A DNA stretch of 64,000 nt from Candidatus Gottesmanbacteria bacterium GW2011_GWA2_43_14 (GTDB lineage: Bacteria; Patescibacteriota; Microgenomatia; 2-02-FULL-39-11), in the NCBI GenBank assembly GCA_000999095.1, contig LCFP01000003.1:26839-90838 (forward strand), written 5' to 3'. The position numbers were made by a program, and so were the translations under genes. Positions 15,773-64,000 of this stretch are shown piece after piece. The stretch's first letter is position 1. Each line of letters opens with the position of its first letter. The notes below the pieces were generated by a model, which saw nothing but the letters and a program-made list of their open reading frames with translations, had not been told where the DNA came from and did not search any database.

Positions 15773-15776
15773 TTTT

Positions 15777-16892: not shown

Positions 16893-16904
16893 TATGAAAA
16901 TCTT

Positions 16905-18530: not shown

Positions 18531-18540
18531 AGTTATAATT

Positions 18541-19449
18541 GTGAAAAAACTCACGGTTACCATAGGAATTTCGGCTTATAACGAGGAAGGAAATATCGCT
18601 AAAATCCTAAAGTCGGTTATTTCTCAAAAGGAAAAAACGATTCAAATCAGCGAAATCCTTGTTTATTCTGACGGATCGACAGATCGGACTGTTCCAACTG
18701 CCAAGTCATTTAAGGACAAACGGATCCGGGTCGTCAATGACAAAATTCGACGCGGGAAAGCATTCCGGCTGAATCATATATTTTCTGTTATGAAAGGTGA
18801 TGTGCTCGTTCTTTTTGATGCCGATACGGTTCCTGTCAATTCCGAGATGCTTGAGTATATCTGCCGTCCATTCCATAGAAGATCATTCATTGGGCTTGCC
18901 GGAGGCCGTAGATATTCAATTCCTACGACTTCACTTACGGGTACCTCTTTGGCTAACTTATTTCACGCTTATGATGTGGTCCGGAAGGAGCTGCGAAACG
19001 GCATTAACATATATTGCTTTTTAGCCGGCATCACTGCTCTCTCACGTGATTTTGCCAAAGCGTTAACTCTTCCTCTTGATTCACCCTGTGATGATAATTT
19101 CATCTATCTTGAAGCGAAAAAGCGAGGGTTTTCCTTAGCATATGTACCCGAGGCGATCGTTTGGTTTTCCCCTCCGCAATCTGCATCCGATCAAATTTCG
19201 CAGGGTTCAAGATACCTGGCCAGCAGTTCGATATTAAGCAGATATTTTAATTCGACGTACGTCAAAGGCGAATTTTACGTTCCTTTTTATCTTCGCCTGA
19301 AAGTTTTCCTTTATCAGGTAAGACATAATCCCATTGCATTTCTGTGGTTAAAATGCTTGGCAGCCGTTTGCCACATACAAAACTTCAAAACCCAAAGACA
19401 TGTGAACGGTCTATACAGGAATGTATATTCAACTAAGAGATTGACATGA
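18541..19449 (+). CDS. GT2-family glycosyltransferase (GTG start)
   Basis: TIGISAYNEEGNI…VYSDGSTD GT-A signature. Confidence 0.7.
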   Translation: MKKLTVTIGISAYNEEGNIAKILKSVISQKEKTIQISEILVYSDGSTDRTVPTAKSFKDKRIRVVNDKIRRGKAFRLNHIFSVMKGDVLVLFDADTVPVNSEMLEYICRPFHRRSFIGLAGGRRYSIPTTSLTGTSLANLFHAYDVVRKELRNGINIYCFLAGITALSRDFAKALTLPLDSPCDDNFIYLEAKKRGFSLAYVPEAIVWFSPPQSASDQISQGSRYLASSSILSRYFNSTYVKGEFYVPFYLRLKVFLYQVRHNPIAFLWLKCLAAVCHIQNFKTQRHVNGLYRNVYSTKRLT

Positions 19450-20354
19450 AAACGCCGGCCGTTTCCATAGGCATTCCCACATATGAAGCGGGAATAAGCC
19501 TGATCAGAACTCTGAATTCAATTTTCAATCAATCCGCATTTTCCCAAATACGGGAAGTCATTATCGTAGTTGACGGAAATACTCTCACTCCCCAAGTTAG
19601 AAACAGATTGCGACATCCTAAAGTGCGCATTGTCATGCGACCCGAAAGAATGGGTCAATCTTCTTGCCTGAATTACATTTTTTCCCGGGTTCATAACGGG
19701 TTGCTTCTACTGACCAATGACGATGTTGTTCTTGATAAGCATGCTACCAAGAACTTCATAGAATGCTATATAGCACAAAGACCTGATTTTTTGGCGGCAC
19801 AAGCCAAGCCGTTACCGCCCAAAAGTCTGTTTGAGCGTATATTGTTTGCCGGTCAAACGATTAATACGCGTATCGCTTCGCGCTGGTTAAATGGTGATAA
19901 TTATCTGTCGGTGAACGGAAGAATGATCGCACTCTCCAGACGATTGTATTCAAATATATCTATCCCACCCGGATTATGGAATAACGATGCTTATATCTAT
20001 CTATACGCAAAATTGAAAAACCTAGGGTTTATTAATGTCAACAACGCGAGAGTATATTATAAACTTCCCGGAAACGTGGCAGACCATCTGCGTCAAAGTT
20101 ATAAATTTCACCTGTCGCAACGCGAAAACGAAATCTACTTTCATGATTCACTTACACGATTCTACAAAATTCCCGTATCACTTTCGATAAAGGCTATGAT
20201 ACATACACTTTTTGATCAACCGGTTTTTACTCCGCTTTATATAGTTTTTTCGGCTCTGACCCGTATATGGTTAACGATATCTCATCAATCACTTCCCAAT
20301 ACCGGATATTGGAATACTGACAGGTCGACAAAACTGCTGGGAGGTAAGTTATGA
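19446..20354 (+). CDS. GT2-family glycosyltransferase, tandem paralogue of upstream gene
   Basis: SIGIPTYEAG…VVDGNT; 4-bp overlap; same length (302 aa) as neighbour. Confidence 0.7.
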   Translation: MKTPAVSIGIPTYEAGISLIRTLNSIFNQSAFSQIREVIIVVDGNTLTPQVRNRLRHPKVRIVMRPERMGQSSCLNYIFSRVHNGLLLLTNDDVVLDKHATKNFIECYIAQRPDFLAAQAKPLPPKSLFERILFAGQTINTRIASRWLNGDNYLSVNGRMIALSRRLYSNISIPPGLWNNDAYIYLYAKLKNLGFINVNNARVYYKLPGNVADHLRQSYKFHLSQRENEIYFHDSLTRFYKIPVSLSIKAMIHTLFDQPVFTPLYIVFSALTRIWLTISHQSLPNTGYWNTDRSTKLLGGKL

Positions 20355-20476
20355 ATTCATTTTTTACCGATAGGTGTGATTTTCTTAAGAAGTTATTACC
20401 AATGTAAAGTATGAATCAGGCATAAAATTGTCATAAATGAATGATACGGAGGGGTTTATCCTCTCCTTATTAATCT

Positions 20477-21769
20477 ATGTACGATATCATCCTGCAAAAA
20501 CTGGAATCGAGAAAAAAACCGATAGAAGTGATTGTTTCGGGTTTGGGTTTTGTTAGTTTCGGTTTCATCTCATCAATCCGTAACTTCAAAGGTCTAAAAG
20601 TTCCCTTGGTCATTACCAGAAGACCGGCAGCCGCCCGCAGTTTTCTGGAAAAAAAAGGATTAAAAGCGGTTCTGGAAAACAATCCGGACAAAATTAAAGA
20701 CAATTCGAATCTGGGGATCATTTCCCTGACTGATGATTTAGAGCTTATCAATAATTATGAAAATGAAGTTGTAATAGAAATGACAGGTACGATTGCCTAC
20801 GGTACGAAAATTGCCTTAAAGACAATCAAGGCCGGGAAGCATCTGGTGACTATGAATCCGGAGCTTCAGGCGACCGTCGGAGCGGAACTTCATACATTGG
20901 CCAGCCGCAAAAAAGTGGTGGTAACAGATATCATCGGCGACCAGCCGGGCAGCCTGGCACGGTTGATAAACCAGGCGAAAGTGATGGGCTTCCGTGTTTT
21001 ACTGGCCGGTAATATGAAGAGGTTTTTGAACAGACATGCCACTCAGTCCGAAATGCAGAACTGGGCTGATAATAAGGGTTTGTCAGTCAAACAGACGGTT
21101 TCTTTTACCGACGGTACCAAACAATCGATAGAAATGAATCTGGTAGCCAATTATTTCAATATGGATATCCTGGAATTCGGCATGCATGGGCCAACAGTCG
21201 AAACTGTTCATGATTCGTTAAACTCTTTTCACTGGGACAAGTTACCCCGGGAAGGCATTGTTGACTACGTTATAGGAAAAAAATTGTTTCCGGGTGTTTT
21301 TCTCATCGCCGAACATCCGGACAAAAACCAAAAACCATACCTATCTTATCTCGGTTTGGGAGAGGGACCCCGTTATGTCCTTTTTGAGCCTTATCATTTG
21401 TGCCATCTGGAGGTTGCGGGCTCAATCGCCAAAGTAATTCTGACCAAAAAGGAAATAATCAGCAATACTTACCCGAAAACCAGGACGATCGCCGTAGCGA
21501 AATACAGGCTTTACCCGGGGCAGAAATTGGATGGTATCGGCGGTGATCTTATTTACGGGAATATTGATAAAGATGAATATGCAAAAGATTTTCTGCCCGT
21601 CGGTCTAACCGAAGGGGCTGTTCTTAAAAAAGCTTTACATCAGGACCAGCCGATCAAAATCTCTGATGTTATTTTGCCACAAAACGCCGCCACTATTTTA
21701 ACCGGATTGGCAGAAAGCCCAAGAGGAAAGGAAAAAATAGATTATGAATTCCCGTCAGTTAAGGTTTAA
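20477..21769 (+). CDS. NAD(P)-binding oxidoreductase with C-terminal SAF-like domain (COG4091 'predicted homoserine dehydrogenase'-like)
   Basis: N-terminal Rossmann GxGxxG (VSGLGFVSFG); size and domain order match COG4091; assignment by recall only. Confidence 0.4.
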   Translation: MYDIILQKLESRKKPIEVIVSGLGFVSFGFISSIRNFKGLKVPLVITRRPAAARSFLEKKGLKAVLENNPDKIKDNSNLGIISLTDDLELINNYENEVVIEMTGTIAYGTKIALKTIKAGKHLVTMNPELQATVGAELHTLASRKKVVVTDIIGDQPGSLARLINQAKVMGFRVLLAGNMKRFLNRHATQSEMQNWADNKGLSVKQTVSFTDGTKQSIEMNLVANYFNMDILEFGMHGPTVETVHDSLNSFHWDKLPREGIVDYVIGKKLFPGVFLIAEHPDKNQKPYLSYLGLGEGPRYVLFEPYHLCHLEVAGSIAKVILTKKEIISNTYPKTRTIAVAKYRLYPGQKLDGIGGDLIYGNIDKDEYAKDFLPVGLTEGAVLKKALHQDQPIKISDVILPQNAATILTGLAESPRGKEKIDYEFPSVKV

Positions 21770-21838
21770 ATGTCCAGAAAATACCAGCTAAGAGTACTTC
21801 TTTTACTGCTTATATCTGCCGGCCAAATATTGATCTAA
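21770..21838 (+). CDS. possible 22-aa hydrophobic micro-ORF (MSRKYQLRVLLLLLISAGQILI) at the boundary of an AT-rich segment
   Basis: ATG abuts the upstream stop and its own stop is followed by the next ATG; no SD; may be non-coding. Confidence 0.2.
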   Translation: MSRKYQLRVLLLLLISAGQILI

Positions 21839-21839
21839 A

Positions 21840-22979
21840 ATGAAAATTCTTTACTTCGGCTCTTATGACAATGATTACATTAGAAACGTTATTAATATAA
21901 AAGGTCTCAGATTAAACCTAGTTGATGTAATAGTATGTAATTTTTATAAAAGAAAATTATTTATAGCATCTGAATATTCGAAAATTACTTATCTAATTAG
22001 AATTTCTACTTCATTGTTTTACCGTTCGATTTATCTTTTTTTTAAAGGAATAATTATTATTATTAAGCAAAAAATTTCATATATCATTATTGGATTTCCT
22101 GGTCATCTTGATATTCCGATAGGCTATCTTATCGCAAAAATAACCGGTAGCAAAATAATTTTTGATCCTTTTATATCGCTATATGATACCTTTGTAACTG
22201 ACAGAAAAATTTTTAGCACTGACTCCTTAATTTCAAAAAGCATAAAAAAGTACGAAACCGCAATATATAAACTTCCAGATTTAATTTTGACACATACAGA
22301 GACTGATAAGTTATATTTCTCAAAAAGTTTCAAGATCCCCTTGAATAAGATCAAAGTTCTTTACATTGGAAGTGATAATTTAACGCAAAAAACCACTGCG
22401 CTCACCGGGAAATCTTCCGATTTTTCAGTTGTATATCAAGGCAACTTTATTCCATTACACGGAATTGAACATATTATTCATTCTGCATTTATTCTGAGTC
22501 AAATAGATAAAAAAATTAAATTTATATTCGTTGGAAACGGACAAACATATCAAGAAAATTTTAATCTCGCAAACATATTAAAACTTAGAAATGTTGTTTT
22601 TAAAGGATTCGTTTCAATATATGACTGGAAAAAAACAATTAATAAGGCCGATATTATATTAGGGATTTTCCAAAATTCGGTGAAGGCTTCTAAATCGATA
22701 CCAAATAAAGTAATTCAAGGAATTGCAGCTAAAAAAGCCGTAATTACCGCAGAAACTACAGCAATTAAAGAATTATTTAATCACTTTGAAAATATGTATT
22801 TCTGCAAACCAGCAGATCCTCTCTCTTTAGCGAACGGAATATTAGAACTAAAAAGAAATTCGAATCTAAGGAATAAAATCGCTTATAACGGGAATAAAAT
22901 ATACAAAAATAAACTAACGCCAATTTCAGTAGGGCGTGAGTTACTGACTATTTGTAACGAGTTTCAAAATTCAAATTAA
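21840..22979 (+). CDS. GT-B-fold glycosyltransferase, AT-rich paralogue of 15777..16892
   Basis: Aligned N-terminus MKILYFGSYDNDY vs MKICFFGTYFANY and C-terminal …IPNKV…FCKPADP; local GC about 28%. Confidence 0.6.
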   Translation: MKILYFGSYDNDYIRNVINIKGLRLNLVDVIVCNFYKRKLFIASEYSKITYLIRISTSLFYRSIYLFFKGIIIIIKQKISYIIIGFPGHLDIPIGYLIAKITGSKIIFDPFISLYDTFVTDRKIFSTDSLISKSIKKYETAIYKLPDLILTHTETDKLYFSKSFKIPLNKIKVLYIGSDNLTQKTTALTGKSSDFSVVYQGNFIPLHGIEHIIHSAFILSQIDKKIKFIFVGNGQTYQENFNLANILKLRNVVFKGFVSIYDWKKTINKADIILGIFQNSVKASKSIPNKVIQGIAAKKAVITAETTAIKELFNHFENMYFCKPADPLSLANGILELKRNSNLRNKIAYNGNKIYKNKLTPISVGRELLTICNEFQNSN

Positions 22980-22980
22980 A

Positions 22981-24069
22981 ATGAAAATAATAATTTCTAA
23001 TTACGATGAAATAAAAAATCCTTATTATGGCGGAGGAGGAGCTATGAGTAATCATAAAATCGGTAAATATTTAGCGGAAAAAAATGAAGTAATGATTATT
23101 TGTGGCGCATTTAAAGGCTGCAGGAACGGTGTTGTAGAAGGTGTATTTTATAAACATATTGGTATAAAAAGATTTGGTCCAATTTTGGGACAGATATTCT
23201 TTTCGTTATTACTGCCCGTATTCGCGTTGATAGAAAATTATGATTTATGGGTAGAAAATTTTGTACCGCCTCATTCTACCAATTTCATTCCAATTTTCAC
23301 CAATAAACCCGTCGTGGGGGTCAGTTCACTCTTGCACGCAAAAGAATTTAGTCAAAAATATGGAATCCCGTTTTATTTAATAGAAAATTTAGGTCTAAAA
23401 TTCTATAAGAATATCCTTGTATTGAGTAATGAATATGCTAAAAAAGTCCAAAAAATCAATAAAAAAGCGAAAATAGTAGAAATTCCAAGGGGGGTAGATG
23501 ACGCTTATTTTGAAATTAAAGGAAATGAGAACAACTATATATTGTATTTAGCGCGAATTGATATTTTCCAAAAAGGTTTAGATTTATTGTTGAAAGCATG
23601 GAAAAAAGTAGTTTATAGGTATCCGCATATCAAATTAGTTATAGCAGGAAATACTACATTTGCAGAAGAAAGAAAATTCAAGCAAATCGTTGATCAACTT
23701 TCATTAGATAAAAATGTTAAGTATATAGGATTGGTAAAAGGAGAAAAAAAAAGAACCCTATTATCAAACTCTCTTTGTGTGATCAGTCCATCACGGTTTG
23801 AAAGCTTCGGCAATTCATCATTGGAAACATTAGCAGCAGGGAAATGCTTAATAGTATTTGATATACCCGGTTATTGCTGGATACCGGAAAATGTTTCAGT
23901 AAAAATAAAGTCGGTAAATTTCAATTTGTTAGCTGTGGCAATTGAAAGAGTCATTTCCAATAAAGAATTAAGAATTAAGTACGGAAAACTAGCAAGGAAT
24001 TTTGCTGAAAATTATAGATGGAAAAAAATATTTAAATTGTACGAAGCTTATTTTTTAAATGTAAATTAA
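22981..24069 (+). CDS. GT4-family glycosyltransferase
   Basis: GT4 motifs (…ESFGNSSLETLAAGKCLIVFDIPG…); AT-rich. Confidence 0.7.
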   Translation: MKIIISNYDEIKNPYYGGGGAMSNHKIGKYLAEKNEVMIICGAFKGCRNGVVEGVFYKHIGIKRFGPILGQIFFSLLLPVFALIENYDLWVENFVPPHSTNFIPIFTNKPVVGVSSLLHAKEFSQKYGIPFYLIENLGLKFYKNILVLSNEYAKKVQKINKKAKIVEIPRGVDDAYFEIKGNENNYILYLARIDIFQKGLDLLLKAWKKVVYRYPHIKLVIAGNTTFAEERKFKQIVDQLSLDKNVKYIGLVKGEKKRTLLSNSLCVISPSRFESFGNSSLETLAAGKCLIVFDIPGYCWIPENVSVKIKSVNFNLLAVAIERVISNKELRIKYGKLARNFAENYRWKKIFKLYEAYFLNVN

Positions 24070-24073
24070 ATAT

Positions 24074-25642
24074 ATGAAGCTCTTAAAAGCAATTAGTTTT
24101 ATTTCATTTTGCATTGCGATATCCGTCTTATTAACTCTCACAATAAAGGGTAACGAAGGTAACCCTTTACCCTTTCAAAACGATCATAATACTAAGGTGG
24201 GGGGGCCATTTGAAGCATCCAACACAACTTCAAGGTATGCTTTAACTTTGGCAATTGCTGAAAACGGATCATTTTTTCTCAATGAAGATTTGGCCAAGTT
24301 TGCTTCACCTGATGTAGTCAAATATAAAGACATGTATATGTCAATCTTTGCGCCCGGAGTATCATTTATAGTAATTCCATTTTATCTTTTTGGAAAAAAA
24401 CTGGGACTTCCTCAGGTAGTTACATTTTTAAGCGTAACTTTCTTTGCCTTATTCAATCTTTTTTTAATAGCCTGGATTTCCATAAAACTGGGATCCGGAT
24501 TCTGGACGGGTTTTTTGGGCGGATTTATTTTCTTATTCGGTACCAATGCCTTGTCATATGCACAAACACTTTCCCAGCACCATTTTACTGTGACAGTTGC
24601 ACTCCTGGCAATAATTACGGCCATGGGTAAACGGACCCTTATCAAAAATATCTGGTTCGGGATATTGTTTGGACTTGGTGTATTGGTAGATATTCCCAAT
24701 GTTTTTCTACTGGCTCCGATTCTTATTTATATTCTGTACAGGCAATTCTATCGGGAGATTTCTGCTGAAATTATTCGAGTCAACATGTCCTTAAATTTTA
24801 TCGGGTTAATTTTAGGAGTGCTGCCGTTTATTGCCTTATTTGCCTGGTATAACAGAGCTACCACCGGTTCATACACAATGCTTGCGCAATCAATCGGTCG
24901 GATGGAAGAGCATGGGGAAACGTTCTCTCAAAGTGATTCAGTAATCCTTCGGGAACAAAAAGATGTCAGAGCTCCGAAAGGAATCCGATTACCTTTTAAT
25001 CCAAGAAAACAGTTAGCCGGAGCGTACACATTATTTATAAGTGATGAAAGATCATGGATATATTACAGTCCGGTAGTCCTTTTAGGTATTTTTGGTCTTT
25101 TTAAACTTCTTAAAAATCAAAAATACAGAGAATTTGCAGCAGTTTCATTGTCAGTGATTTTTCTTAACGGTATTATGTATTCCATGTTTGGAGACCCCTG
25201 GGGGGGTTGGGCATTCGGACCCAGGTATTTAATTCCGGCGGGAGCGCTGTTGTCTATCGGATTAAGCATAATTTATACCAATTGGAACAGGAATATTCTT
25301 TTTATGTTGATTTTTGTGATTTTGGCTATTTATAGTCTGCGCATCAATACTCTCGGTGTGACAACAACCACTATGATTCCGCCGAAGATAGAGGCAATTA
25401 ATCTTCCTAAACCTATACCTTACACCTACGACTATAACTTCCAGCTTCTGAATAAGAATATCTCCAGTTCACTAATTTATAATCGCTTCTTGTCTAAAAA
25501 ACTGACTGCCACAGATTATTCTTACAGGCTCTTCATATCTGTTTCTTCGGTTTTTCTATTACTCACAATAGCTTCTTATTTCGAAATAAAAACATTAATT
25601 AAGAAATCTCATTACAGGAAGATATATATAAATAACATATGA
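24074..25642 (+). CDS. polytopic membrane glycosyltransferase, GT-C fold; paralogue of 16905..18530
   Basis: 522 aa, more than 10 TM; MFGDPWGGWAFGPRYLIPAG motif shared. Confidence 0.6.
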   Translation: MKLLKAISFISFCIAISVLLTLTIKGNEGNPLPFQNDHNTKVGGPFEASNTTSRYALTLAIAENGSFFLNEDLAKFASPDVVKYKDMYMSIFAPGVSFIVIPFYLFGKKLGLPQVVTFLSVTFFALFNLFLIAWISIKLGSGFWTGFLGGFIFLFGTNALSYAQTLSQHHFTVTVALLAIITAMGKRTLIKNIWFGILFGLGVLVDIPNVFLLAPILIYILYRQFYREISAEIIRVNMSLNFIGLILGVLPFIALFAWYNRATTGSYTMLAQSIGRMEEHGETFSQSDSVILREQKDVRAPKGIRLPFNPRKQLAGAYTLFISDERSWIYYSPVVLLGIFGLFKLLKNQKYREFAAVSLSVIFLNGIMYSMFGDPWGGWAFGPRYLIPAGALLSIGLSIIYTNWNRNILFMLIFVILAIYSLRINTLGVTTTTMIPPKIEAINLPKPIPYTYDYNFQLLNKNISSSLIYNRFLSKKLTATDYSYRLFISVSSVFLLLTIASYFEIKTLIKKSHYRKIYINNI

Positions 25643-27258
25643 ATATTCTAAATTTGCGGTTTTCCATAAAAAAAGGCTCATTAGATAAAATAAGCGAATG
25701 GGAAAGCAGGATGCCGTTATTACTTCTGGGTATTTTAGCGATCTTGTCCATTGTCTGTTTTTACATTTTTTATGATAACGGGCTCGGACTTTCCTACAAC
25801 GATGCCCGGTCGCATCTGGACATCGGAAGACGCGTGGTTGAAGGATTAAAACCCGGGTTGGCCCAACTCGGATCAGTCTGGCTGCCTCTGCCTCACCTTC
25901 TTATGATTCCGACAATTTGGCATGATTTTATGTGGCATACCGGGCTTTCGGGAGCATTGCCCTCGATGCTTTCATTTGTGGCTACATCTCTCTTGATCTA
26001 TTTTTTTCTGCAAAAACTGGGTGTCGGCTTATCCGGAAAAATACTGGGGGTTGCCGTATTTGTCGCCAATCTCAATGTCCTGTATCTCCAGTCAACAGCC
26101 ATGACGGAACTGCTTCTCCTGGCAACCATGACTGCCGGTATGTATGAGCTTTTAAAGTGGAGCATGGATGAAAATTTCCTCAATCTTATTAAATCCGCTT
26201 TTTGGATCATGCTTTCCTCCCTTGTCAGATATGAAGGCTGGTTTCTGCTGCTTTATGCAGCCTTTCTGATAATTTTCATTATGGTGAGGAAAAAAGGCTA
26301 TAAAGTAACGGAAGGCACCTTGATTCTTTTCGGAACTTTGGCAGGAGTTGGTATTCTGTTATGGTTTCTCTGGAATACTTTGATTTTCAATGATCCCTTA
26401 TATTTTGCCTACGGTCCTTTCTCAGCCCGCACCCAGCAGAAACAAATGGAACTGGCCGGTGTCTTATCTACAAAAAACAATTTATTGTTATCCCTGAAAG
26501 TCTATCTATTTGCCTTAATCTATAATTCTTATGCCTATAATGCCGTTTTGGGACTTATAGGAGCAATAGTATTTTTCACCGATAAAAATATTAAACCTCA
26601 TGTCAGGTTTGCAGCTACTGTTTTGCTTACTCCATTAATATTCAACGTTTTAGCACTTTTCATGGGTCACTCTGTTCTATTTATACAGGGAATTTCAGGC
26701 GATACCTGGTTTAACGTCCGTTACGGTCTGATGATGCTGCCTTCAATTGCCATTTTTGCGGGCTACCTCGTCCATAAAGCCAAGTCATTAAGAGTAACCA
26801 TAATCGGATTATTTGTCTTTGTTATTTTTTTTGCATTTACCAACGGTGATGCAGTCACAATTGATGATGCAAGAGTCGGCTCCAGCCAGAAAAATGTCTC
26901 AGAGGTAAGCGGTTATCTGAACACCCATGCCAAAAATACAAAGGGATTTGTGCTTATTTCGGCAGCTTCACACGACGCCATTATTTTTTCATCAGGACTT
27001 CCCATGAAAAGATTTATCCATGAAGGAACAGGCGGCTATTGGGAATCGGCAACAGGCAGTCCTGACAGATGGGCGCGCTGGATAGTCGTACGCACCAACG
27101 ACAATAATGACTTAACCTGGAAATCCCTTTCCGAAGCACCGGATTCCATATCAAAATACAAACTGGCCGCCAAATATCCTTTTGCCGATGTTTACGAATT
27201 GAAAAAAGAATACCTGGCGGAATTAATCACGGAGCCGATTCTCGGAAAACAAAAATAA
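25639..27258 (+). CDS. polytopic membrane protein with C-terminal extracytoplasmic domain (possible GT-C-like)
   Basis: 539 aa, about 11 TM then soluble domain; 4-bp overlap with upstream GT-C gene. Confidence 0.45.
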   Translation: MNILNLRFSIKKGSLDKISEWESRMPLLLLGILAILSIVCFYIFYDNGLGLSYNDARSHLDIGRRVVEGLKPGLAQLGSVWLPLPHLLMIPTIWHDFMWHTGLSGALPSMLSFVATSLLIYFFLQKLGVGLSGKILGVAVFVANLNVLYLQSTAMTELLLLATMTAGMYELLKWSMDENFLNLIKSAFWIMLSSLVRYEGWFLLLYAAFLIIFIMVRKKGYKVTEGTLILFGTLAGVGILLWFLWNTLIFNDPLYFAYGPFSARTQQKQMELAGVLSTKNNLLLSLKVYLFALIYNSYAYNAVLGLIGAIVFFTDKNIKPHVRFAATVLLTPLIFNVLALFMGHSVLFIQGISGDTWFNVRYGLMMLPSIAIFAGYLVHKAKSLRVTIIGLFVFVIFFAFTNGDAVTIDDARVGSSQKNVSEVSGYLNTHAKNTKGFVLISAASHDAIIFSSGLPMKRFIHEGTGGYWESATGSPDRWARWIVVRTNDNNDLTWKSLSEAPDSISKYKLAAKYPFADVYELKKEYLAELITEPILGKQK

Positions 27259-27264
27259 CAGATT

Positions 27265-28500
27265 ATGCGTAAAATTGCCGTTTTCAGTTTAAGCCTTTTT
27301 TTAATTGCCGTTTTGTTTAAAACAAACGGCATGACGCAAACCCCAAGACCGTCCTGGTGGGAGTTCCAATCAATAGACACGATGAAGTATTCCCGGGATA
27401 CGGCACGGGAAAAAAATAACGACAGGGAATTTGCCAAAACAATCGATGAGCAAATAAAAGCAATCGGCCAAACCGGGGCAACCCATGTTGCCATAGCTAC
27501 CCCCTATGATGATGAATTTTTACCTTTTCTGACACTCTGGGTAAATACTGCCAGAAAATACGGACTAAATATCTGGTTCCGGGGAAATTGGTCCGGTTGG
27601 GAGCAGTGGTTCGGCTACGGCAAAATAAACCGGGAGGAACATCTGATAAAAACAGCAGAATTCATAAATAAAAATGCCGGATTATTCCGCGACGGTGACG
27701 TATTTACAGCCTGTCCTGAATGTGAAAACGGGGGACCGGGGGATCCGAGATTTAATAATGACGCTAACGGACACAGGCTGTTTTTGATAAAAGAATACGA
27801 GCTGACGAAAGGCCTATTTAATAAACTTAATAAAAAAGTAAAATCAAATTACCTGTCAATGAACGGGGATGTAGCCAGGTTAATTATGGATGAGGAAACG
27901 ACAAGCAAACTTGACGGACTGGTAGTCATCGACCATTACGTTTCCTCACCGGAAATACTGGCAAATGATATTAAAAATATAGCTGTAAAAAGCAAGGCTA
28001 AAATTGTTCTCGGAGAATTCGGTACCCCCATTCCCGATATTCACGGAAAAATGACCGATGAGGAGCAGTCGAAGTGGATTAAAGAAGCGCTTGAAAAACT
28101 GTCGGCCATACCTGAAGTAATCGGCCTTAACTACTGGGTAAGTTACGGCGGATCGACAGAAATTTGGCGGCCTGATAACAGCGAAAAAGCTGCTGTTTCT
28201 GTTTTATCCTCTTTTTTTAAACCCCAGGTCTTAAATGGGAAAATAGTCAATGAGTTGGACTGGCCTGTAGAAAATGCCATGGTAGAGACAAGGGGTCGAA
28301 AGGAAACGACAGACGCCCAGGGTATGTTTAGCCTTCCTTTTATCGGAGAGAATTCGCAGGTCGAGATAAGCCATAAGGATTATGAGAAAATACAATTAAC
28401 GGTAAGTGAGTTTAAAAATAATCAGTCTGCCGTGCTGATAAAGACTTCCGAGAGTTTTGTTTATAAGCTGCTTAAAAAAATAAAAGAATTAATAGACTGA
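27265..28500 (+). CDS. secreted putative glycoside hydrolase (TIM-barrel, GH5-like clan GH-A) with C-terminal beta-sandwich domain
   Basis: Signal peptide; candidate acid/base …CPECENGG… and nucleophile …VLGEFG… motifs; assignment tentative. Confidence 0.4.
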   Translation: MRKIAVFSLSLFLIAVLFKTNGMTQTPRPSWWEFQSIDTMKYSRDTAREKNNDREFAKTIDEQIKAIGQTGATHVAIATPYDDEFLPFLTLWVNTARKYGLNIWFRGNWSGWEQWFGYGKINREEHLIKTAEFINKNAGLFRDGDVFTACPECENGGPGDPRFNNDANGHRLFLIKEYELTKGLFNKLNKKVKSNYLSMNGDVARLIMDEETTSKLDGLVVIDHYVSSPEILANDIKNIAVKSKAKIVLGEFGTPIPDIHGKMTDEEQSKWIKEALEKLSAIPEVIGLNYWVSYGGSTEIWRPDNSEKAAVSVLSSFFKPQVLNGKIVNELDWPVENAMVETRGRKETTDAQGMFSLPFIGENSQVEISHKDYEKIQLTVSEFKNNQSAVLIKTSESFVYKLLKKIKELID

Positions 28501-56685: not shown

Positions 56686-57234
56686 ATGAATCCGGCAGCA
56701 GTAACAACCTTTCTGTCAGTCTTAACGGTTGCAGGCTTAGTGGGAGCAGTTTTTCTGGCCTTAATTTATCTATTACCAAAAAACTCCAAAAAAACCGGGA
56801 AAAAGCTTGTTCCGCTTAAACAGTGGTTATCCCAATACGCTTTTCATCTGGCGCTGATCGTTTCTTTAACGGCGACCATGGGCAGTTTATATTTTTCTGA
56901 AATTGCAGGGTATGAACCGTGCAAACTGTGCTGGTACCAGCGTATTTTGATGTACCCGCAAGTTTTATTGCTGGGATTAAGCCTGATCATGAAAGATAAG
57001 AATATCGGCCGGTATCTGTTGATGCTTTCTCTTATCGGTTTACCTGTGGCCGTCTACCATTACTACCTGCAATGGGGAGGCAATCCGTTGGTTCCCTGTT
57101 CCACTGTCGGCATATCGGTTGACTGTTCCGACAGGTTTGTGATGCAGTTTGGGTTTGTTTCCATCCCTTTTATGTCTTTTACTTCATTTTTGCTGATTGC
57201 CCTTTTAATGCTTTTCCCCAAAAAAAGCAGGTAA
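56686..57234 (+). CDS. dsbB: disulfide bond formation protein B (DsbB/BdbC family)
   Basis: 4 TM; CKLCWYQR first Cys pair and second Cys pair in periplasmic loop (C…C at PCSTVGISVDC). Confidence 0.7.
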   Translation: MNPAAVTTFLSVLTVAGLVGAVFLALIYLLPKNSKKTGKKLVPLKQWLSQYAFHLALIVSLTATMGSLYFSEIAGYEPCKLCWYQRILMYPQVLLLGLSLIMKDKNIGRYLLMLSLIGLPVAVYHYYLQWGGNPLVPCSTVGISVDCSDRFVMQFGFVSIPFMSFTSFLLIALLMLFPKKSR

Positions 57235-57552: not shown

Positions 57553-58092
57553 TTATTGGGGTTTATCGGGAGATGGAGCAGTTGCCGGCGAAGAAGGGGG
57601 AGGAGTAACCGGTTGAACCTGAGGGGGTACGGCTGGGGTTATGTCAGCCGGAGCGGGAGCCGGAGATGCCACAGGCTCTGCTGCCGCCGGTGCCGCTGAC
57701 TGATTCTGTAAATCCGCCATCTGCTGGAAAAATGCATCCACTTCCCTGACAACGTCCATGGGTGTAAATTGGGCTTTGATCAGATAACCGTCAGCCCCGA
57801 TTTTGAAGGCTTCCTTGATGATATCTTCCTGGCCAAGATTGGTGATCAGAATGATAGGTGTATTTTTCGTCGGAGAAGTAGGGGCTCTCATGGCCCGCAG
57901 GACATCGATGCCGGTAACCTTTGGCAGCATGATATCCAAAAGAATCAGATCGTATACATGGCTGCTTAATTTAACCAGAGCTTCTTGTCCGTCCGAAGCA
58001 GTTTCGACCGAATAATTGCCGGTTTTAACGAAAGACATGCGGTAGATTTCCTGAATGTGGAAATCGTCCTCAACCAATAACAGGGTTTTCAT
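57553..58092 (-). CDS. single-domain response regulator with Pro/Ala-rich C-terminal tail
   Basis: LLLVEDDFHIQEIY…DLILLDIMLPKVTGIDVL…; tail …PAPAPADITPAVPPQVQPVTPPPSSP. Confidence 0.8.
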   Translation of the reverse strand: MKTLLLVEDDFHIQEIYRMSFVKTGNYSVETASDGQEALVKLSSHVYDLILLDIMLPKVTGIDVLRAMRAPTSPTKNTPIILITNLGQEDIIKEAFKIGADGYLIKAQFTPMDVVREVDAFFQQMADLQNQSAAPAAAEPVASPAPAPADITPAVPPQVQPVTPPPSSPATAPSPDKPQ

Positions 58093-58095
58093 AAT

Positions 58096-59613
58096 TTAAT
58101 TGCTGCCTGAATTGCCGGCCATCCTCTGGGAAATTCTTTCAGGATTAATCATAATACCTTTTCCGGTTTTAGACAAACTGCCGAACTGGGCTGCCGGTTG
58201 GGATGCCTGGATATTGGAAGCGATAGGCAGGGTAAAAGTGAAAGTTGAGCCTTTGCCAAGTTCGCTTTCAACTGAAATTTCTCCACCATGCATGGTAATA
58301 ATGGATTTGGAAATGAATAATCCTAAACCTGTGCCCTTGGATCCCTGTTCCAGGACGCTGGAAACCCGGAAAAATTTGGTAAAAAGCTTGGCAAGGGCTT
58401 CTTTGGGAATGCCGATGCCGGTGTCCCTGACGGAAACGGAGACGAATGAATCCTTTTTGGTAAGATAGATCTTTATTGATTCGCCAACAGGAGTATAGGT
58501 TATGGCGTTTGTTATCAAATTGGAAATAACCTGATTGATACGCGAAGAGTCAGCCATTACCAGGGGCAATTTTTCCAGCGGCTCTTCAAAAGTCAGTGTT
58601 TGTCCTTTGCTGTTTGCCTGGTCTATCATATCGGTAACGGTATTTTTCACAAGAGAGGTCAAATCCAAGGCTGCAGGTTCAATTTTATAGGACCCTCTTT
58701 CAATCCGCGAGACGTTTAACAGATTATCGATGAGAGTTCCCAAATTTGCAGCATTATATTCGAGTCGATGCAGATGCTCCTGATGTTCCGGAGACAGTTT
58801 TTCGCCCAGTTCGGAGTTCAGAAGTTCGGCATATCCCCTGATGACTGTCAAAGGCGTCCGAAGTTCATGGGCTGCCATGGAAACGAAGTCTAGCTTCATT
58901 TCCTCCAGGGCTTTTTGATTGGTTTCGTCATAGAATGTCAGAATAAAACCGTGGTTTTCCTCTTCCTGGAAAGTGACTGTAGTAATGGAAACAGATACAT
59001 GGAATATCTTGCCGTCCTGCGATCTGATTTGCAGGCCGTGTTCACGATGGATTGTCGCCAGCTCATCCGGTTTGACAAAGTAATTGGAAACTATGATTTT
59101 TTCATCGCCCCCGTAAATATGAAGTATTTCATCAATATGTTTTCCGGTAACCATTTGCTCCGTAAAACCCGTGAATTTCTCGGCCGTTTTATTGAAAATC
59201 AGGACTTTGCCGCCCTGGTCCAGAGCAATTACTGCTTCAGATAAAGAAGCCAGCAGGGTTTCCATTTTCTTTTCCTGCCTGTTGAATTGCGCTTCACGCT
59301 GTCCGATTTGTTCGGTTATCAAAGTAAAAGTGGTTGACAGATGTTCTAAATCCTGACCGGCGATGCCTATGCCGGAATTGAATTTTTCCTTTTCCAGTTT
59401 TTCCAAAGCTGAGGCCATTTTGTTGCCTATCGAGCTGTAAAATAAGTTTATTACCAATATCGAAGCTAAAATAAGCAGATTACCGGCTACTAAAACCAGC
59501 CAAAAACCGGGAAGCGGTCCTCCTAAAAGATAAGCAATCAGGGCAAGTGCGGTGAAAAGGCCGGTCAGGATTACGGCTGTTATAAGGGATTTTGCTCTCA
59601 AGCTTATTTTCAT
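58096..59613 (-). CDS. membrane sensor histidine kinase (2 TM, PAS domains)
   Basis: H-box [16 protein letters not shown]; HATPase; 3-nt gap to downstream receiver gene. Confidence 0.85.
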
Positions 59614-59685: not shown

Positions 59686-60189
59686 TTGATCTGCTATCTT
59701 CAATTTATGAATAAAAGACTTAAGTTGGGATGGTTTTCATTTTCCTGCTGTGAAGATTCAACTATTATCTTTACAGAGCTTCTGAATGATCACTATTTAA
59801 CCTGGAAGAAATTGATTGATTTTCGGTCAATTTCGGTTCTTCAGAAGAAAGAAGATCTGACGGATTTGGATGTAGCCTTTGTTGAAGGAGCCATAACTTC
59901 AGGCGGGCAGTCGGATAGGCTAAAGGTGATCCGCGAAAACAGCAAAAAACTGGTGGCCGTAGGGAGTTGTGCCTGTGTCGGTATGCCGTCAGCCCAGAGG
60001 AATCTTTTTAACACAGAAACAAATACAGAAATTGAGGCTATCCTGACCCGATTCAAGTACTTGCCTAAAGTACAAAAATTGTCAGAAATTGTGACTGTTG
60101 ACGATCAGGTGCCAGGCTGTCCGATGAACGAAAAAATATTCCTGACTTTAGTTGATAAATACTTAAAGGAGTTTAAGATAATTTCCTAA
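59686..60189 (+). CDS. [NiFe]-hydrogenase small subunit, group-3-like (single proximal FeS-cluster domain); start may be ATG at 59707
   Basis: …GWFSFSCCEDS…GSCACVGMP…VPGCPMNE matches small-subunit proximal-cluster motifs (GxCAxxGG, PGCPP). Confidence 0.7.
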   Translation: MICYLQFMNKRLKLGWFSFSCCEDSTIIFTELLNDHYLTWKKLIDFRSISVLQKKEDLTDLDVAFVEGAITSGGQSDRLKVIRENSKKLVAVGSCACVGMPSAQRNLFNTETNTEIEAILTRFKYLPKVQKLSEIVTVDDQVPGCPMNEKIFLTLVDKYLKEFKIIS

Positions 60190-61479
60190 ATGCATAATCT
60201 TGATTTGACGCTTTCCGACATCTCCAAAATTGAAGGCAAAGCAGGCTGTGACATCAAAATCCGCGACGGTCTTGTCAAAGAAGTAAAATTCTCCATAGCT
60301 GAATTTAAGCGGTTCTATACCCAGGCAATCCGAGGGAAGGACATAGCTGCCCTGCCTCAACTGACAGCCAGGATTTGCGGCACCTGCTCCAACGCCCATT
60401 TGCTGTGCGCCATCAAAGCCTGTGAAAATATTTTGGGCATTAAAGTCAGCCAACAAACACTCCTGCTCCGGCAACTTTTGAACTTCGGCTTAATAATCAG
60501 GGATCATGCTTTACATTTATATATATTCGTCCTACCTGATTTTTTCGGCCGGGATTCGATTTTGGATTTTAAAGAAGATGACGGCCCGGAGCATAAATTT
60601 CTACATGATGCTTTCGCGGTAAAGTCTGCCGGGAATCATTTAAGCATAGCTGTTGGCGGCAGAAGCGTTCATGCACCGTATCCGATGGTGGGCGGTTTTA
60701 CCAGGCTCCCGGATAAGGCGGAACTCATTAAATGCCTGCAGGAATTAAAAGGGATCAGATCACGGGTAATTGATCTGGTAAAGTTATTCTTGGAAAAAGA
60801 CAAAACACTGGTCCGGAACAACCTGCAGTTTGCCGCTCTTCTGGACGAATCATATTCCTTTCTGGATGGAGAAATTTATCATACGGACGGCAAAGAAGCA
60901 CCGGAAAAATACGGAGATAATCTGAAATATGTATCCATCCCGTATTCACATGCCTCCGGATTCCGTTTCAGAGGCAAAACCTTCATGACAGGTGCCCTGG
61001 CCCGGCTGAACCTGGGGAAAGAAAAACTGCATAAAAAATCCAAGCAAAGTTTGGGGCCAATTTTGGACATTTTTCCGTCCCAAAATATATATCATAACAA
61101 TTTAGCCCAAGCCATAGAGATTCTCCACAGCATCGATTCGGCGGCTGATATTATTGAAAATCTGGATATCAAAGAGGAGAAACAACTGCCTATAACCAGA
61201 AAGGCCGGGGAAGGAGTGGGAGTCATTGAAGCACCGAGGGGGATACTTTATTACCGCCTGGCAATTGACGGAACCGGCCGGATAATCAAAGGGCAGATTG
61301 TTGTTCCTACAGGCCAAAATCAGATCGGCATCGAAGAGTCTATCCGGGTTTATCTGGAAAACAATCTTGAAAAATTAAATGACAGGGAAATATTGGAAAA
61401 AGAAATCGAATCAATAGTCCGGGCATATGACCCCTGCATGAGCTGCGCCTCACATTTCCTCAAAATCCGCTACAGCTGA
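60190..61479 (+). CDS. [NiFe]-hydrogenase large subunit (group 3-like)
   Basis: N-terminal RICGTCSNAH (RxCGxCxxxH) and C-terminal DPCMSCASH Ni-binding motifs; stop 1 nt after small subunit stop. Confidence 0.85.
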   Translation: MHNLDLTLSDISKIEGKAGCDIKIRDGLVKEVKFSIAEFKRFYTQAIRGKDIAALPQLTARICGTCSNAHLLCAIKACENILGIKVSQQTLLLRQLLNFGLIIRDHALHLYIFVLPDFFGRDSILDFKEDDGPEHKFLHDAFAVKSAGNHLSIAVGGRSVHAPYPMVGGFTRLPDKAELIKCLQELKGIRSRVIDLVKLFLEKDKTLVRNNLQFAALLDESYSFLDGEIYHTDGKEAPEKYGDNLKYVSIPYSHASGFRFRGKTFMTGALARLNLGKEKLHKKSKQSLGPILDIFPSQNIYHNNLAQAIEILHSIDSAADIIENLDIKEEKQLPITRKAGEGVGVIEAPRGILYYRLAIDGTGRIIKGQIVVPTGQNQIGIEESIRVYLENNLEKLNDREILEKEIESIVRAYDPCMSCASHFLKIRYS

Positions 61480-61847
61480 TTTACCAGAATTTCACATAAT
61501 TCCGCAACAGCTTTATCAGGAAGTATATGGTCCGGAACTCCGATGATGAGAAAATCGTTCAGCTTTCTTAATTTTTTTCTTAAGGATAATTCCAAAAAAA
61601 GATCGTAATCATGAACGCTGACATTCGGAGTAGGGGAAAAGGCGGACAGGGAATTAAAGATAGTGATTTTCTTAATACCCAGAACCGTATCAATCAAAAC
61701 CAGTTTTTCCGCTTCATCCGGCAGTTCTTCGGTCGGGTCGTATTTTATGAAATTAAATCCGGGCAATTTTCTTTTAAGACGCGGCAGAATTTTAAGGGGC
61801 AGGGAATCCCGGGGTAAAAGCATATTGCCCAAACAATAAACATTCAT
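61470..61847 (-). CDS. hydrogenase maturation endopeptidase (HycI/HoxW/HybD-like)
   Basis: …VYCLGNMLLPRDSLPLKI…LVLIDTV…HDYDL…IIGVP pattern of hydrogenase maturation proteases. Confidence 0.6.
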   Translation of the reverse strand: MNVYCLGNMLLPRDSLPLKILPRLKRKLPGFNFIKYDPTEELPDEAEKLVLIDTVLGIKKITIFNSLSAFSPTPNVSVHDYDLFLELSLRKKLRKLNDFLIIGVPDHILPDKAVAELCEILVNQL

Positions 61848-62605
61848 GAGTTAATAACCTGCAGGGATAGATTTGTATAATATTTAAGATTTATTAGCTG
61901 CCGGACTTCCAGCTTCTGGCAGAAATAGCCCCAGTGGTAGGAAAGGTAATCGCCTTTTACGAGATCTGACTTTAAAGCGTCGCTCTTACCCTGGTATTTA
62001 ATGTTTCTGGTTATTTTTTTCGTCAGATGCAGTTTTCCCGCCACATCTTCCAGTTTTTGCGTCGTGACTTTGATTGTGCCGTCCTCGTTAAAAGCAATAA
62101 TTTTACCCCAATTGATAAGGCAGGCATCCATAGTTTCCAAAGTATGTGGAATATTGAGATGCCCGGTTCTTCGCCAGACTGCCAGGACATGAAAGGAATG
62201 GTGGGGTTTGGGGGACCTTGGGAAAAAGTTTACCAGCCGCTTCAGCTCCCCCGGACTCTTTTTTTTCAGTTCCATTTTATCAATCAGATGATCCGCGTAA
62301 CTTTTGATCCTGACCTTCTCCAGAAGCTGATTTCCCAGCCAGTATGCTTCGACCACCAGCGGATCAAATGGATCAGAGAAATTATTCTGGTAGGCAATCA
62401 GACAAAGATAAGGATATAAAGTTGAAAAATTCCCTAAAATCTCTGAGGCACCCAGGTCAAGTATGGCAGTTTCCGAATAGTAGGCCATGTCTTTTTTTTT
62501 GTTCAAGGGTCCGCATAAAGAAAGCGAGTTGGGAGGATATGCATAGCGGCTGCAGAGAAAGATGCCGCTAGACGACGATGCTGCGGTTTTTTGGTCGGAA
62601 AACAT
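61844..62605 (-). CDS. hypothetical protein embedded in hydrogenase maturation operon
   Basis: 253 aa, CxxxxxxxxxxxxC near N-terminus; overlaps both neighbours. Confidence 0.5.
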   Translation of the reverse strand: MFSDQKTAASSSSGIFLCSRYAYPPNSLSLCGPLNKKKDMAYYSETAILDLGASEILGNFSTLYPYLCLIAYQNNFSDPFDPLVVEAYWLGNQLLEKVRIKSYADHLIDKMELKKKSPGELKRLVNFFPRSPKPHHSFHVLAVWRRTGHLNIPHTLETMDACLINWGKIIAFNEDGTIKVTTQKLEDVAGKLHLTKKITRNIKYQGKSDALKSDLVKGDYLSYHWGYFCQKLEVRQLINLKYYTNLSLQVINS

Positions 62606-63449
62606 AAATCAGCATAATGCCTGAAAGCGAGAGAATCAGGTTGTTTAATTGCAGTCCGGAAATGAATTGACGTGTCCAAAACATATTTAAGAGATTGGTG
62701 ACAGGGGTGGCCAGAATCAGAATGGCGGTCACCTGGGTAGCTGGGGCATACTTTAAGGCTGAAAAAAGACCGGTGACATAAAGAGTCAGAAGCACAATAG
62801 AAGGTATTACCGGCAGCAGGGTGGTCCAATCAAGCAAAAATAATAATCTGAGTTTTGACTGCCAGGCGGCAATTCCGATTAAAATCAGACTTCCCAAAAA
62901 CATCCGGCTCCAGGAAACCGTCAGACTTCCGGATTTGCGTAATACTTTTTTTGCCACTATATATTCACAAGACCATAATAAAGTAGCCAGAAGAATGAGA
63001 GCTTCGCCGCTGTTGAATGCAAAGCCGTTAAAACCCAGGAAGATATTTGACAAGGCTATCAGGACAAATCCGGCCACCTGAAGCATGCCCAGTTTTTCTT
63101 TCAAAAATGGAATAGCCAGAAAGGCCACCCAAATAAAAAGCGATTTATGGATCAGGTTGGCATTTATGGCCGAAGCCGATACCAGGCCGGCAAAATATAA
63201 AATAAATGGCAGACTGCCGCCGGCAACAGCAATAATTAAAAGCCCCTTCCAGTTTTTTTTAAAATCCTCAGTTATCCTGCCTCTTCGTCCGGTAAAAAGC
63301 GCCAGTGACAAAATGACGGCCGTCCCTCCGTTTTTAACGATATTAAAGATCAGGGGATCAATGCCTTTTACCAATACCTGTTTATTGTAGAAGATGGAAA
63401 CACCCGATATTAATGCTGTCAGTATGGCCCATTTGATTCCTTTATTCAT
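62568..63449 (-). CDS. EamA/DMT-superfamily transporter
   Basis: 293 aa, 10 TM, duplicated EamA-like halves. Confidence 0.7.
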   Translation of the reverse strand: MNKGIKWAILTALISGVSIFYNKQVLVKGIDPLIFNIVKNGGTAVILSLALFTGRRGRITEDFKKNWKGLLIIAVAGGSLPFILYFAGLVSASAINANLIHKSLFIWVAFLAIPFLKEKLGMLQVAGFVLIALSNIFLGFNGFAFNSGEALILLATLLWSCEYIVAKKVLRKSGSLTVSWSRMFLGSLILIGIAAWQSKLRLLFLLDWTTLLPVIPSIVLLTLYVTGLFSALKYAPATQVTAILILATPVTNLLNMFWTRQFISGLQLNNLILSLSGIMLIYVFRPKNRSIVV

Positions 63450-63453
63450 AAAA

Positions 63454-63672
63454 TCAGGAGAGTGATTTGATCAATAAGCGCACTTTCATTCCTTCCTCCC
63501 GGCTGAGCCTGGCAACAGCCAAGCCGCCTGCGACCTGCAAATATTCGCCTTTTTTTACGGTCAGATCTCCTGTCAATGATACGGTCCGGCCACCTTCTAT
63601 CATTGCTTTATTGCCGACAACCTGCAGCACTTTTACGGGAACGGTAAAACACATATTTGAATTAAAGTACAC
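63454..63672 (-). CDS. hypC: [NiFe]-hydrogenase assembly chaperone HypC/HupF
   Basis: N-terminal MCFTVPVKV (MC(L/F)xxP) signature, 72 aa. Confidence 0.8.
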   Translation of the reverse strand: MYFNSNMCFTVPVKVLQVVGNKAMIEGGRTVSLTGDLTVKKGEYLQVAGGLAVARLSREEGMKVRLLIKSLS

Positions 63673-63704: not shown

Positions 63705-64000
63705 ATGCCCGTTCGCATAAATACCGTTTTATACAACCGCATTATTTTCGCTTTGTCGCTTTTAGGCATTATTTTAGCGGTTTATGTCCTCCAAAGTTTT
63801 CTCAGGCAAACCCCGATTGTCTGTTTGAATTCGGGCTGCGAACTGGTCAGGAAAAATCCTTTAAGCTATCCCCTTGGGATTCCGGTGCCCGCTGTCGGGC
63901 TGGTAGGTTATTCTATCCTGGCTGTTTTGGCTTTTTTAAAAACTGCTTCGACCAAGCGGAATCTGCTTTATGCTATCCTGGGCATGTCCGCTTTCGGTGT
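63705..64000 (+). CDS. vitamin K epoxide reductase (VKOR)-family membrane protein, 3'-truncated by window end
   Basis: TM helices and CxxC (VCLNSGC) in first periplasmic loop typical of bacterial VKOR. Confidence 0.5.
   Translation, partial: MPVRINTVLYNRIIFALSLLGIILAVYVLQSFLRQTPIVCLNSGCELVRKNPLSYPLGIPVPAVGLVGYSILAVLAFLKTASTKRNLLYAILGMSAFG

Follow-up and report, generated by a model that had tools for sequence, protein, structure and literature searches.

A stretch of 64,000 nucleotides from Candidatus Gottesmanbacteria bacterium GW2011_GWA2_43_14 (contig LCFP01000003.1, positions 26,839 to 90,838 of the forward strand; hereafter the window) contains, near its right end, two adjacent genes for the small and large subunits of a [NiFe] hydrogenase, on which four genes of the opposite strand converge (Table 1). 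We put at roughly 0.6 the probability that the two subunits form a heterodimeric, cytoplasmic [NiFe] hydrogenase of the hyd2 clade, a sister of the group 3b enzymes, which would be coupled to ferredoxin and would be served by a nickel-supply and maturation set of its own. The features that carry this reading are an intact NiFe site, a small subunit with one iron–sulfur (Fe-S) cluster, a dedicated protease gene placed tail to tail with the large-subunit gene, a HypC-like gene, and the absence of genes for beta and gamma subunits nearby. A first-pass annotation, made by a model from the letters and a list of open reading frames (ORFs), had described a two-protein hydrogenase with split maturation genes, and all of the features that it described were recovered in place by ORF listing and translation.

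Group-3b-related hydrogenases of bacteria in the Candidate Phyla Radiation (CPR) were divided into hyd1 and hyd2 by Jaffe et al. (2020; BMC Biol 18:69, PMC7304191). According to the hydrogenase section of that paper, hyd1 has beta and gamma subunits and keeps their genes adjacent. In hyd2, as described there, the small subunits have a mean length of 164 residues (against 250 in hyd1 and in non-CPR enzymes), hypC lies nearby, beta and gamma subunits are lacking, and near some of the loci a PF07992 oxidoreductase or a small Fe-S protein is encoded; the authors call the function uncertain. The hyd2 context plots used genes on the same strand only, and the hydrogenase section makes no mention of a protease, of the DUF6390–EamA gene pair treated below, of the fusion of that pair, or of a tandem-cysteine motif. 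Our literature searches for later work on hyd2 returned only this paper. The window locus shares with hyd2 a CPR host, a 3b-related large subunit, a truncated small subunit of 160 residues, a hypC-like gene and the lack of adjacent beta and gamma genes. Judged by its sequence it is a further member of hyd2, fitting every stated feature of the published description, and its novelty as a kind is low. What is added here is the conservation of the gene module, the family-wide SCC motif in the register of NuoB, the identity of the protease, the ferredoxin/reductase neighbour and the features of DUF6390.

Relatives were sought by scanning one genome per GTDB species. They were found in 305 species representatives, and 80 loci were kept, spanning Gottesman-, Roizman-, Morani-, Komeili-, Azam-, Kerfeld-, Andersen- and Chisholmbacteria, WWE3 and Parcubacteria. 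Neighbourhood counts refer to 82 non-redundant hyd2 loci, and counts of module conservation to 51 non-redundant loci flanked on each side by 4.5 kb or more. The same DNA stretch is present on a 137-kb groundwater contig of the Joint Genome Institute (JGI), numbered L088 among our loci, which adds ~9 kb beyond the end of the window and brings the coverage of this genome to ~74 kb. The window was annotated by Pfam scans of its larger ORFs, a few small ORFs being left unscanned.

The large subunit carries both of the canonical motifs that had been noted at first, RxCGxCxxxH as R61-I-C63-G-T-C66-S-N-A-H70 (RICGTCSNAH) and DPCxxCxxH as D414-P-C416-M-S-C419-A-S-H422 (DPCMSCASH). The four cysteines that are ligands of the Ni-Fe centre (C63, C66, C416 and C419) are invariant across 15 relatives, together with E15 (the Glu of the EGK motif), R350 (the Arg of APRG) and H422, and PF00374 is matched with 97 bits, against a cut-off of 25.8. 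When the family profile was scored against solved structures in the PDB, the group 3b proteins Thermococcus kodakarensis HyhL (5yxy) and Pyrococcus furiosus SHI alpha (9nez) came first with 273 bits, followed by MvhA (3c) with 195, group 3d with 140–184 and Frh (3a) with 98 bits. The best NCBIfam matches are ShyA and HydA, far below the equivalog cut-offs (254 versus 700). By these scores the large subunit is closest to the group 3b alpha subunits, which supports the earlier description of a minimal two-subunit, group-3-like enzyme. A total of 5313 homologues was found, of which the top 120 are all CPR proteins, and the nearest (80% and 66% identical) come from Candidatus Gottesmanbacteria and other Patescibacteria.

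The best sequence and structure relatives of both subunits are found in group 3b (P. furiosus SHI, 9e15/9nez; T. kodakarensis Hyh, 5yxy), with which the large subunit shares its size (~428 residues), the EGK, L1 and L2 motifs, and a very short C-terminal tail. After H422 exactly seven residues follow (FLKIRYS), as had been counted before; the suggestion that such a length is remarkable did not hold. Because the two 3b structures (HyhL and SHI alpha) end ~4 residues past the corresponding His, and the tails of the 82 relatives are mostly 7–11 residues long, the short tail is an ordinary 3b trait rather than an oddity.

For the small subunit, comparison with relatives favours the internal ATG as the true start, giving a protein of 160 residues that begins MNKRLKLGWFSFSCCEDS... 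It aligns to positions 3–154 of the 261-residue P. furiosus HydD profile and to the delta chains of 9e15 and 9nez, and the nearest counterpart of its family is the SHI delta subunit, with 76 bits. The 3b delta subunit has ~260 residues and three Fe-S clusters, whereas the hyd2 protein covers only its first ~155 residues, with one cluster left and CC replacing CxxC. On these alignments the small subunit consists of the proximal Fe-S cluster domain alone, as the first-pass annotation had proposed, and the C-terminal domain for the medial and distal clusters is missing.

That annotation had also pointed out SCC at the place of the usual CxxC pair. The motif, FSFSCCEDS in the window protein, turns out to be family-wide: C14, C88 and C138 do not vary among 82 small subunits, position 15 is Cys in 76 of them, and E16 and D17 are each kept in 81. 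A normal four-cysteine proximal cluster, which had been named as the counter-case, is present in part, since four cysteines (C14, C15, C88 and C138) are available, with a tandem CC and not a CxxC. In an hhalign comparison with Escherichia coli NuoB, FSFSCC falls exactly on the tandem pair in FGLSCC of FGLSCCYVEM; in the HMMER alignment to HydD, C15 takes the position of the first Cys of CxxC, and Ser/Asn that of the second. The ligands of the proximal cluster are probably the tandem C14–C15 with the distant C88 and C138, after the manner of cluster N2 of complex I, which is ligated by tandem cysteines (PMC8042128). The complex I subunit NuoB/PSST/Nqo6 and the group 4 small subunits belong to the same family (PF01058) and have a single [4Fe-4S] site, with the SCC of E. 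coli NuoB in register, but the overall similarity is much lower (22 versus 76 bits to the 3b delta) and membrane or quinone-site partners are lacking. Because of this low similarity, the tandem motif is probably convergent. An N2-like tandem-cysteine ligation, if true, has not been described for a hydrogenase.

No gene resembling HoxFU, FrhB, MvhD or HydBG was found in the window (Pfam, larger ORFs, with a few small ones unscanned) or in the ~9 kb beyond it on L088, and no beta or gamma gene of the HydB/HydG, HoxFU, FrhB or MvhD kind lies beside the hydrogenase in any of the 82 loci; the earlier remark that such a partner is missing next to the hydrogenase thus holds for the relatives as well. 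HoxY of group 3d is likewise small (~180 residues), with the proximal cluster only, and was matched by the small subunit (PDB 5xf9_C, 189 residues). HoxY passes its electrons to the HoxFU diaphorase, whereas no HoxF or HoxU was found in the scanned ORFs of the window. Alternatively, the two subunits may belong to an ordinary tetrameric 3b sulfhydrogenase or NADP hydrogenase, with the genes for its beta (Fe-S) and gamma (FAD/NAD(P)) subunits elsewhere in the genome. The close similarity of the large subunit to 3b alpha subunits and the coverage of ~74 kb of the genome would allow this, and distant gamma-like matches could not be excluded by Jaffe et al. in their hydrogenase section (PMC7304191). 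We consider it improbable: the small subunit is without the C-terminal domain that wires delta to beta in 3b, the two partner genes are absent from the vicinity of all 82 hyd2 loci, whereas the sister clade hyd1 keeps both adjacent, and the reductase that is co-encoded in some loci is of a different family.

This reductase, a flavoprotein of ~415 residues with Pyr_redox_2 and Rubredoxin_C domains and a homologue of E. coli NorW, is the commonest extra neighbour (15 of the 82 loci), and its gene mostly lies directly upstream of the small-subunit gene or closes the accessory operon. Eleven loci encode a single-cluster ferredoxin of 85–100 residues (Fer4_15, with three cysteines, CxxxxxC...CP), mostly beside the NorW-like reductase. 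The ferredoxin and the NorW-like FAD reductase are the only recurrent redox neighbour of hyd2. In a ferredoxin-coupled heterodimer, the proximal cluster would lie near the surface because there are no medial or distal clusters, and it could pass electrons straight to and from a small carrier in solution, most likely ferredoxin. In the minority of lineages that co-encode them, the three-cysteine ferredoxin and the NorW/rubredoxin-reductase-like FAD enzyme may link the hydrogenase to NAD(P)(H), whereas in the present genome the carrier would be encoded elsewhere. In a fermentative CPR cell, such an enzyme could act as a reversible redox valve, mainly evolving H2.

The four genes on the minus strand are transcribed in the order HypC-like protein, EamA/DMT permease, DUF6390 protein and 125-residue protease. 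HypC heads an operon with a DMT transporter and a 253-residue protein, as had been described from the sequence, and the 253-residue protein is now recognized as DUF6390. The genes are tightly packed: the stop codon of the small-subunit gene abuts the ATG of the large-subunit gene, the DUF6390 and EamA genes overlap by 38 nt, and the convergent protease gene overlaps the large-subunit gene by the 10 bp noted before. Pfam and NCBIfam searches of the locus matched Oxidored_q6, NiFeSe_Hases, DUF6390 and EamA, left HupF_HypC below threshold and gave no match for the 125-residue protein. Among the 51 well-flanked loci, the small subunit is present in all, the protease in 50, DUF6390 in 45, EamA in 40 and HypC in 36, and all five accessory genes occur together in 35, from many CPR lineages. 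Thus, the six-gene module is conserved across CPR lineages. As a rule the accessory operon converges on the hydrogenase genes and overlaps them; two loci (L012 and L013) have it on their own strand, upstream of them. Neighbour clustering over the 82 loci revealed no further family in more than 15 of them. A scan for promoters and terminators around the locus gave signals that did not clearly exceed those of shuffled controls, and it was left aside.

A PAS histidine kinase gene and a response regulator gene lie immediately upstream of the small-subunit gene, in divergent orientation. The kinase had been reported in the first-pass annotation and is indeed present, but it is not a conserved neighbour: it is found upstream of the small subunit in only four of the 82 loci, all from Gottesmanbacteria, and a relative with 66% identity (L004) has a Crp-type regulator in its place. 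The kinase and the response regulator are lineage-specific neighbours outside the conserved module. Their position recalls HoxBC–HoxJ and HupUV–HupT, and would suit an H2 sensor, that is, a regulatory hydrogenase signalling through this kinase and response regulator. We reject this idea, which is very unlikely, because the kinase is not conserved. Regulatory hydrogenases are not known to have a cleaved C-terminal tail or to need a protease, whereas here the tail is conserved, as is a protease of its own, and the sequence is 3b-like and not 2b-like. The response regulator itself is made up of a receiver domain and, after it, a tail of ~60 residues rich in Pro and Ala, and has no recognizable output domain.

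The 125-residue protein was called a maturation protease at first sight, and its fold bears this out. The top seven PDB matches of its AlphaFold2 model (predicted local distance difference test score, pLDDT, 85) are all [NiFe] maturation proteases (E 4.5e-6 to 8e-4, probability 1.00); they include T. kodakarensis HybD (5ija, the top match) and HycI, E. coli HybD and HycI, and a Wolinella homologue. Furthermore, 16 of 29 relatives match PF01750 (HycI), with a best E of 1.3e-6. The family profile found nothing relevant among PDB sequences, and hhalign of the family against E. coli HycI alone gave a probability of 1%. Based on the predicted fold and the Pfam matches in relatives, the protein is a shortened, divergent endopeptidase of the HycI/HybD family; the tail of the 3b large subunit is processed by a HybD-type protease. 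Its invariant residues include G7, N8, D14, D37, P38, D53, H79, D80 and D82. The metal-binding triad of HybD consists of Glu/Asp16, Asp62 and His93, and the candidate ligands here are D14 (after GN), D53 (in IDT) and H79 (in HD), of which H79 falls on the His of HycI, whereas the register of D53 is uncertain.

The HypC-like protein has the N-terminus MCFTVP and reaches 27.7 bits with PF01455, just under the cut-off of 28.5, with a weak match to TIGR00074; in L088 it is likewise a weak HupF_HypC match. All 40 listed members of its family begin with MC, most with MCxxxP, and the CPR proteins are without an equivalent of His51 of E. coli HypC. HypC would deliver Fe(CN)2CO to the large subunit, and the protease would cleave the tail after nickel insertion; the generic HypA, HypB, HypD, HypE and HypF would be encoded elsewhere in the genome. 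Searches with E. coli HypA–F as queries (phmmer) found hypD–hypE–hypF immediately upstream of hyd2 in L034 16-3725 (Moraniibacteriota), and hypA and hypB directly after hypC in L023 13465-14452 and L025 12540-13480. Organisms with hyd2 therefore possess the standard machinery, usually at unlinked sites.

The DUF6390 protein and the permease are the freshest lead of the locus. Literature searches for DUF6390 returned nothing, and an exhaustive profile search gave 1261 clusters at 50% identity. Its model (pLDDT 88) has an all-helical N-terminal domain (residues ~10–160), followed by a C-terminal beta-barrel of the oligonucleotide/oligosaccharide-binding (OB) type and a helix. The helical domain, of ~150 residues, had no structural match in either fold search; for the C-terminal part, HypC is the third-ranked Foldseek match and the one of highest identity. 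With hhalign, GDYLSYH224WGYF of DUF6390 falls on GxWVLVH51VGFA of HypC at 56% probability, and in the extended mode AC162LINWGK falls on MC2xxxPGK. Among 60 diverse members of DUF6390, C31, H136, C162 and H224 are invariant, and C18, H135, H139 and C229 are kept in 88–98%. DUF6390 is thus like HypC/HupF in its OB barrel and helix, in a Cys at the first strand and in the His of GDYxxxHxG, but it has an extra helical domain and its Cys is internal, not N-terminal. The public JGI call of the window protein (P0121; L088 10001-10645) starts at an internal Met and has 214 residues, leaving out the conserved N-terminal segment with C18 and the invariant C31-G-P. Fusions of a full-length EamA permease with DUF6390, EamA being at the N-terminus, occur in L047 11642-13333 (-; 563 residues) and L059 11726-13405 (-; 559 residues), the hosts being one Kerfeldbacteria and one Parcubacteria genome.

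In non-CPR bacteria, DUF6390 is fused to helix-turn-helix (HTH) domains of the XRE, PadR, GntR or ArsR type. Four such fusion genes were placed in their surroundings, and all adjoin transporters. The fusion in L095 has as neighbours a nickel transporter of the HoxN/NixA family, which passes the NCBIfam cut-off, and an overlapping permease of the major facilitator superfamily (MFS); those in L093 and L096 lie beside ATP-binding cassette (ABC) systems whose binding proteins best match NikA but below its cut-off, and that in L091 beside another ABC system. Other [NiFe] hydrogenase genes lie within 10 kb of three of the four fusions, and L095 also carries HycI and HypA, and L096 HycI and HypC. No homology of DUF6390 to NikR, RcnR or HypA/B was detected. 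Like nickel-responsive regulators, DUF6390 adjoins nickel transporters and, in HTH regulators, makes up the half that does not bind DNA, though its metal binding is only predicted. The HTH–DUF6390 fusions may form an unrecognized class of regulators.

The most economical reading of these sequence features is that DUF6390 serves hydrogenase biogenesis as a domain that binds metal, probably nickel, and that the EamA permease and DUF6390 of the hyd2 locus most likely import and hand over, or sense, nickel. The main alternative is a HypC/HupF-like role, in which DUF6390 would be a second chaperone or scaffold for Fe(CN)2CO or for the apo-large subunit, while the permease would import an organic precursor or would merely be co-transcribed. 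This agrees with the position of the invariant C162 and H224 on Cys2 and His51 of HypC in the extended alignment, with the lack of that His in the stand-alone HypC of CPR, with a weak resemblance to the HypF finger in the motif RYxYPPN..CGP, which 21 of 40 members share, and with a permease whose conserved residues are Glu, Lys and Arg, not His or Cys. The fusion to four different HTH families, however, points to a ligand-sensing domain, and the fusion genes lie beside three kinds of nickel transporter (NicT/HoxN, NikA-like ABC and overlapping MFS), so that we regard the scaffold role as unlikely. The HypF-finger-like motif itself was not counted as evidence, being too short and weak (E at least 0.065; 4% with hhalign).

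Taken together, a wider proposal can be made only tentatively, and falls somewhat short of even odds: DUF6390 would be a new nickel-binding biogenesis domain with the core C31/H136/C162/H224, acting in CPR with the DMT permease, and in places fused to it, as a nickel import and hand-over system reserved for a minimal hydrogenase; the HTH fusions would be new nickel-responsive regulators of nik/hoxN-type transporters and hydrogenase genes; and the hyd2 cluster would have N2-like tandem-cysteine ligation.

Several points weigh against the reading of the locus as a ferredoxin-coupled hydrogenase with its own nickel supply. The ferredoxin/reductase pair is absent from the window, from L088 and from most loci, and the partner named for this genome is a guess. 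The function of the hyd2 enzyme is deduced from sequence, from which the catalytic direction cannot be read. The register of the cysteine motif is ambiguous by one residue between the HMMER/HydD and hhalign/NuoB alignments, and position 15 is Ser in six of the 82 small subunits; Asp17 or Glu16 may be the true fourth ligand, especially in these Ser15 variants. No hypA, hypB, hypD, hypE or hypF was found in the ~74 kb of this genome with the phmmer queries. The nickel role of EamA and DUF6390 rests on genomic context: the NikA-like binding proteins score below the family cut-offs, and, because the permease is without conserved His or Cys, a nickel chelate or another substrate is possible.

Hyd2 is among the few energy-metabolism enzymes carried by many CPR/Patescibacteria, and whether these tiny cells produce H2 or take it up depends on its partner and its direction. 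If true, a [NiFe] hydrogenase of two subunits and a single exposed cluster would be unusually small for its class and an attractive target for engineering. Through the accessory operon, DUF6390 gains a concrete, testable function, apparently tied to the nickel supply of hydrogenases well beyond CPR.

Table 1. Genes of the hyd2 locus and its upstream neighbours in the window, and HTH–DUF6390 fusion genes placed in other bacteria
Feature	Position	Strand	Basis or remark
hyd2 small subunit, 160 residues	59707..60189 (ORF possible from TTG 59686)	+	PF01058, E 1.9e-16
hyd2 [NiFe] large subunit, 429 residues	60190..61479	+	PF00374
Divergent HycI/HybD-family maturation endopeptidase, 125 residues	61470..61847	-	Fold and Pfam matches in relatives
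DUF6390 protein, 253 residues, candidate nickel-binding maturation/supply factor	61844..62605	-	
EamA/DMT-family permease, 293 residues	62568..63449	-	PF00892
HypC-like chaperone, 66 residues from ATG (ORF reaches GTG 63672)	63454..63654	-	Sub-threshold PF01455
PAS histidine kinase	58096..59613	-	Pfam; divergent from hydrogenase
REC-only response regulator	57553..58092	-	Pfam; divergent from hydrogenase
HTH–DUF6390 fusion	L095 10001-10972		
HTH–DUF6390 fusion	L096 4413-5516		
HTH–DUF6390 fusion	L093 1346-2455		
HTH–DUF6390 fusion	L091 1468-2499		

Other genes recur near the module. A VKOR gene (window 63705-64000, +), cut by the end of the window, adjoins it, and is usually followed by a DsbA-like gene. 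VKOR is adjacent to the hyd2 module in 10 loci, including L001, L004, L010, L016, L017, L043, L056 and L057, either after HypC or directly upstream of, and co-directional with, the small-subunit gene. In the window, DsbB is encoded 2.5 kb upstream (56686-57234, +), and the upstream region of L004 also has Trx, DsbD and Grx genes. A functional link of VKOR, DsbA and DsbB to the hydrogenase was considered and set aside, the association being lineage-restricted and without plausible thermodynamic coupling. In another Gottesmanbacteria locus (L057 11307-13900), genes for an MgtE_N/CBS protein and an NRAMP divalent-metal transporter lie between the large-subunit and protease genes. Three more unannotated families recur near the module, for example in L076 8363-9424 (-) and 13553-14567 (-), and similarly in Roizmanbacteria-type loci: a protein of ~353 residues is encoded in 13 loci, in most of them divergently upstream of the small subunit, and proteins of ~181 and ~154 residues follow HypC in seven loci.

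Farther to the left in the window, three consecutive large ORFs (522, 539 and 411 residues) without a Pfam match occupy positions 24074-28500. They are preceded, at 12311-24069, by a long run of glycosyltransferase genes, including one for a multi-domain protein of 1153 residues, and the G+C content falls to 0.30 at 22–24 kb, compared with ~0.42 elsewhere.

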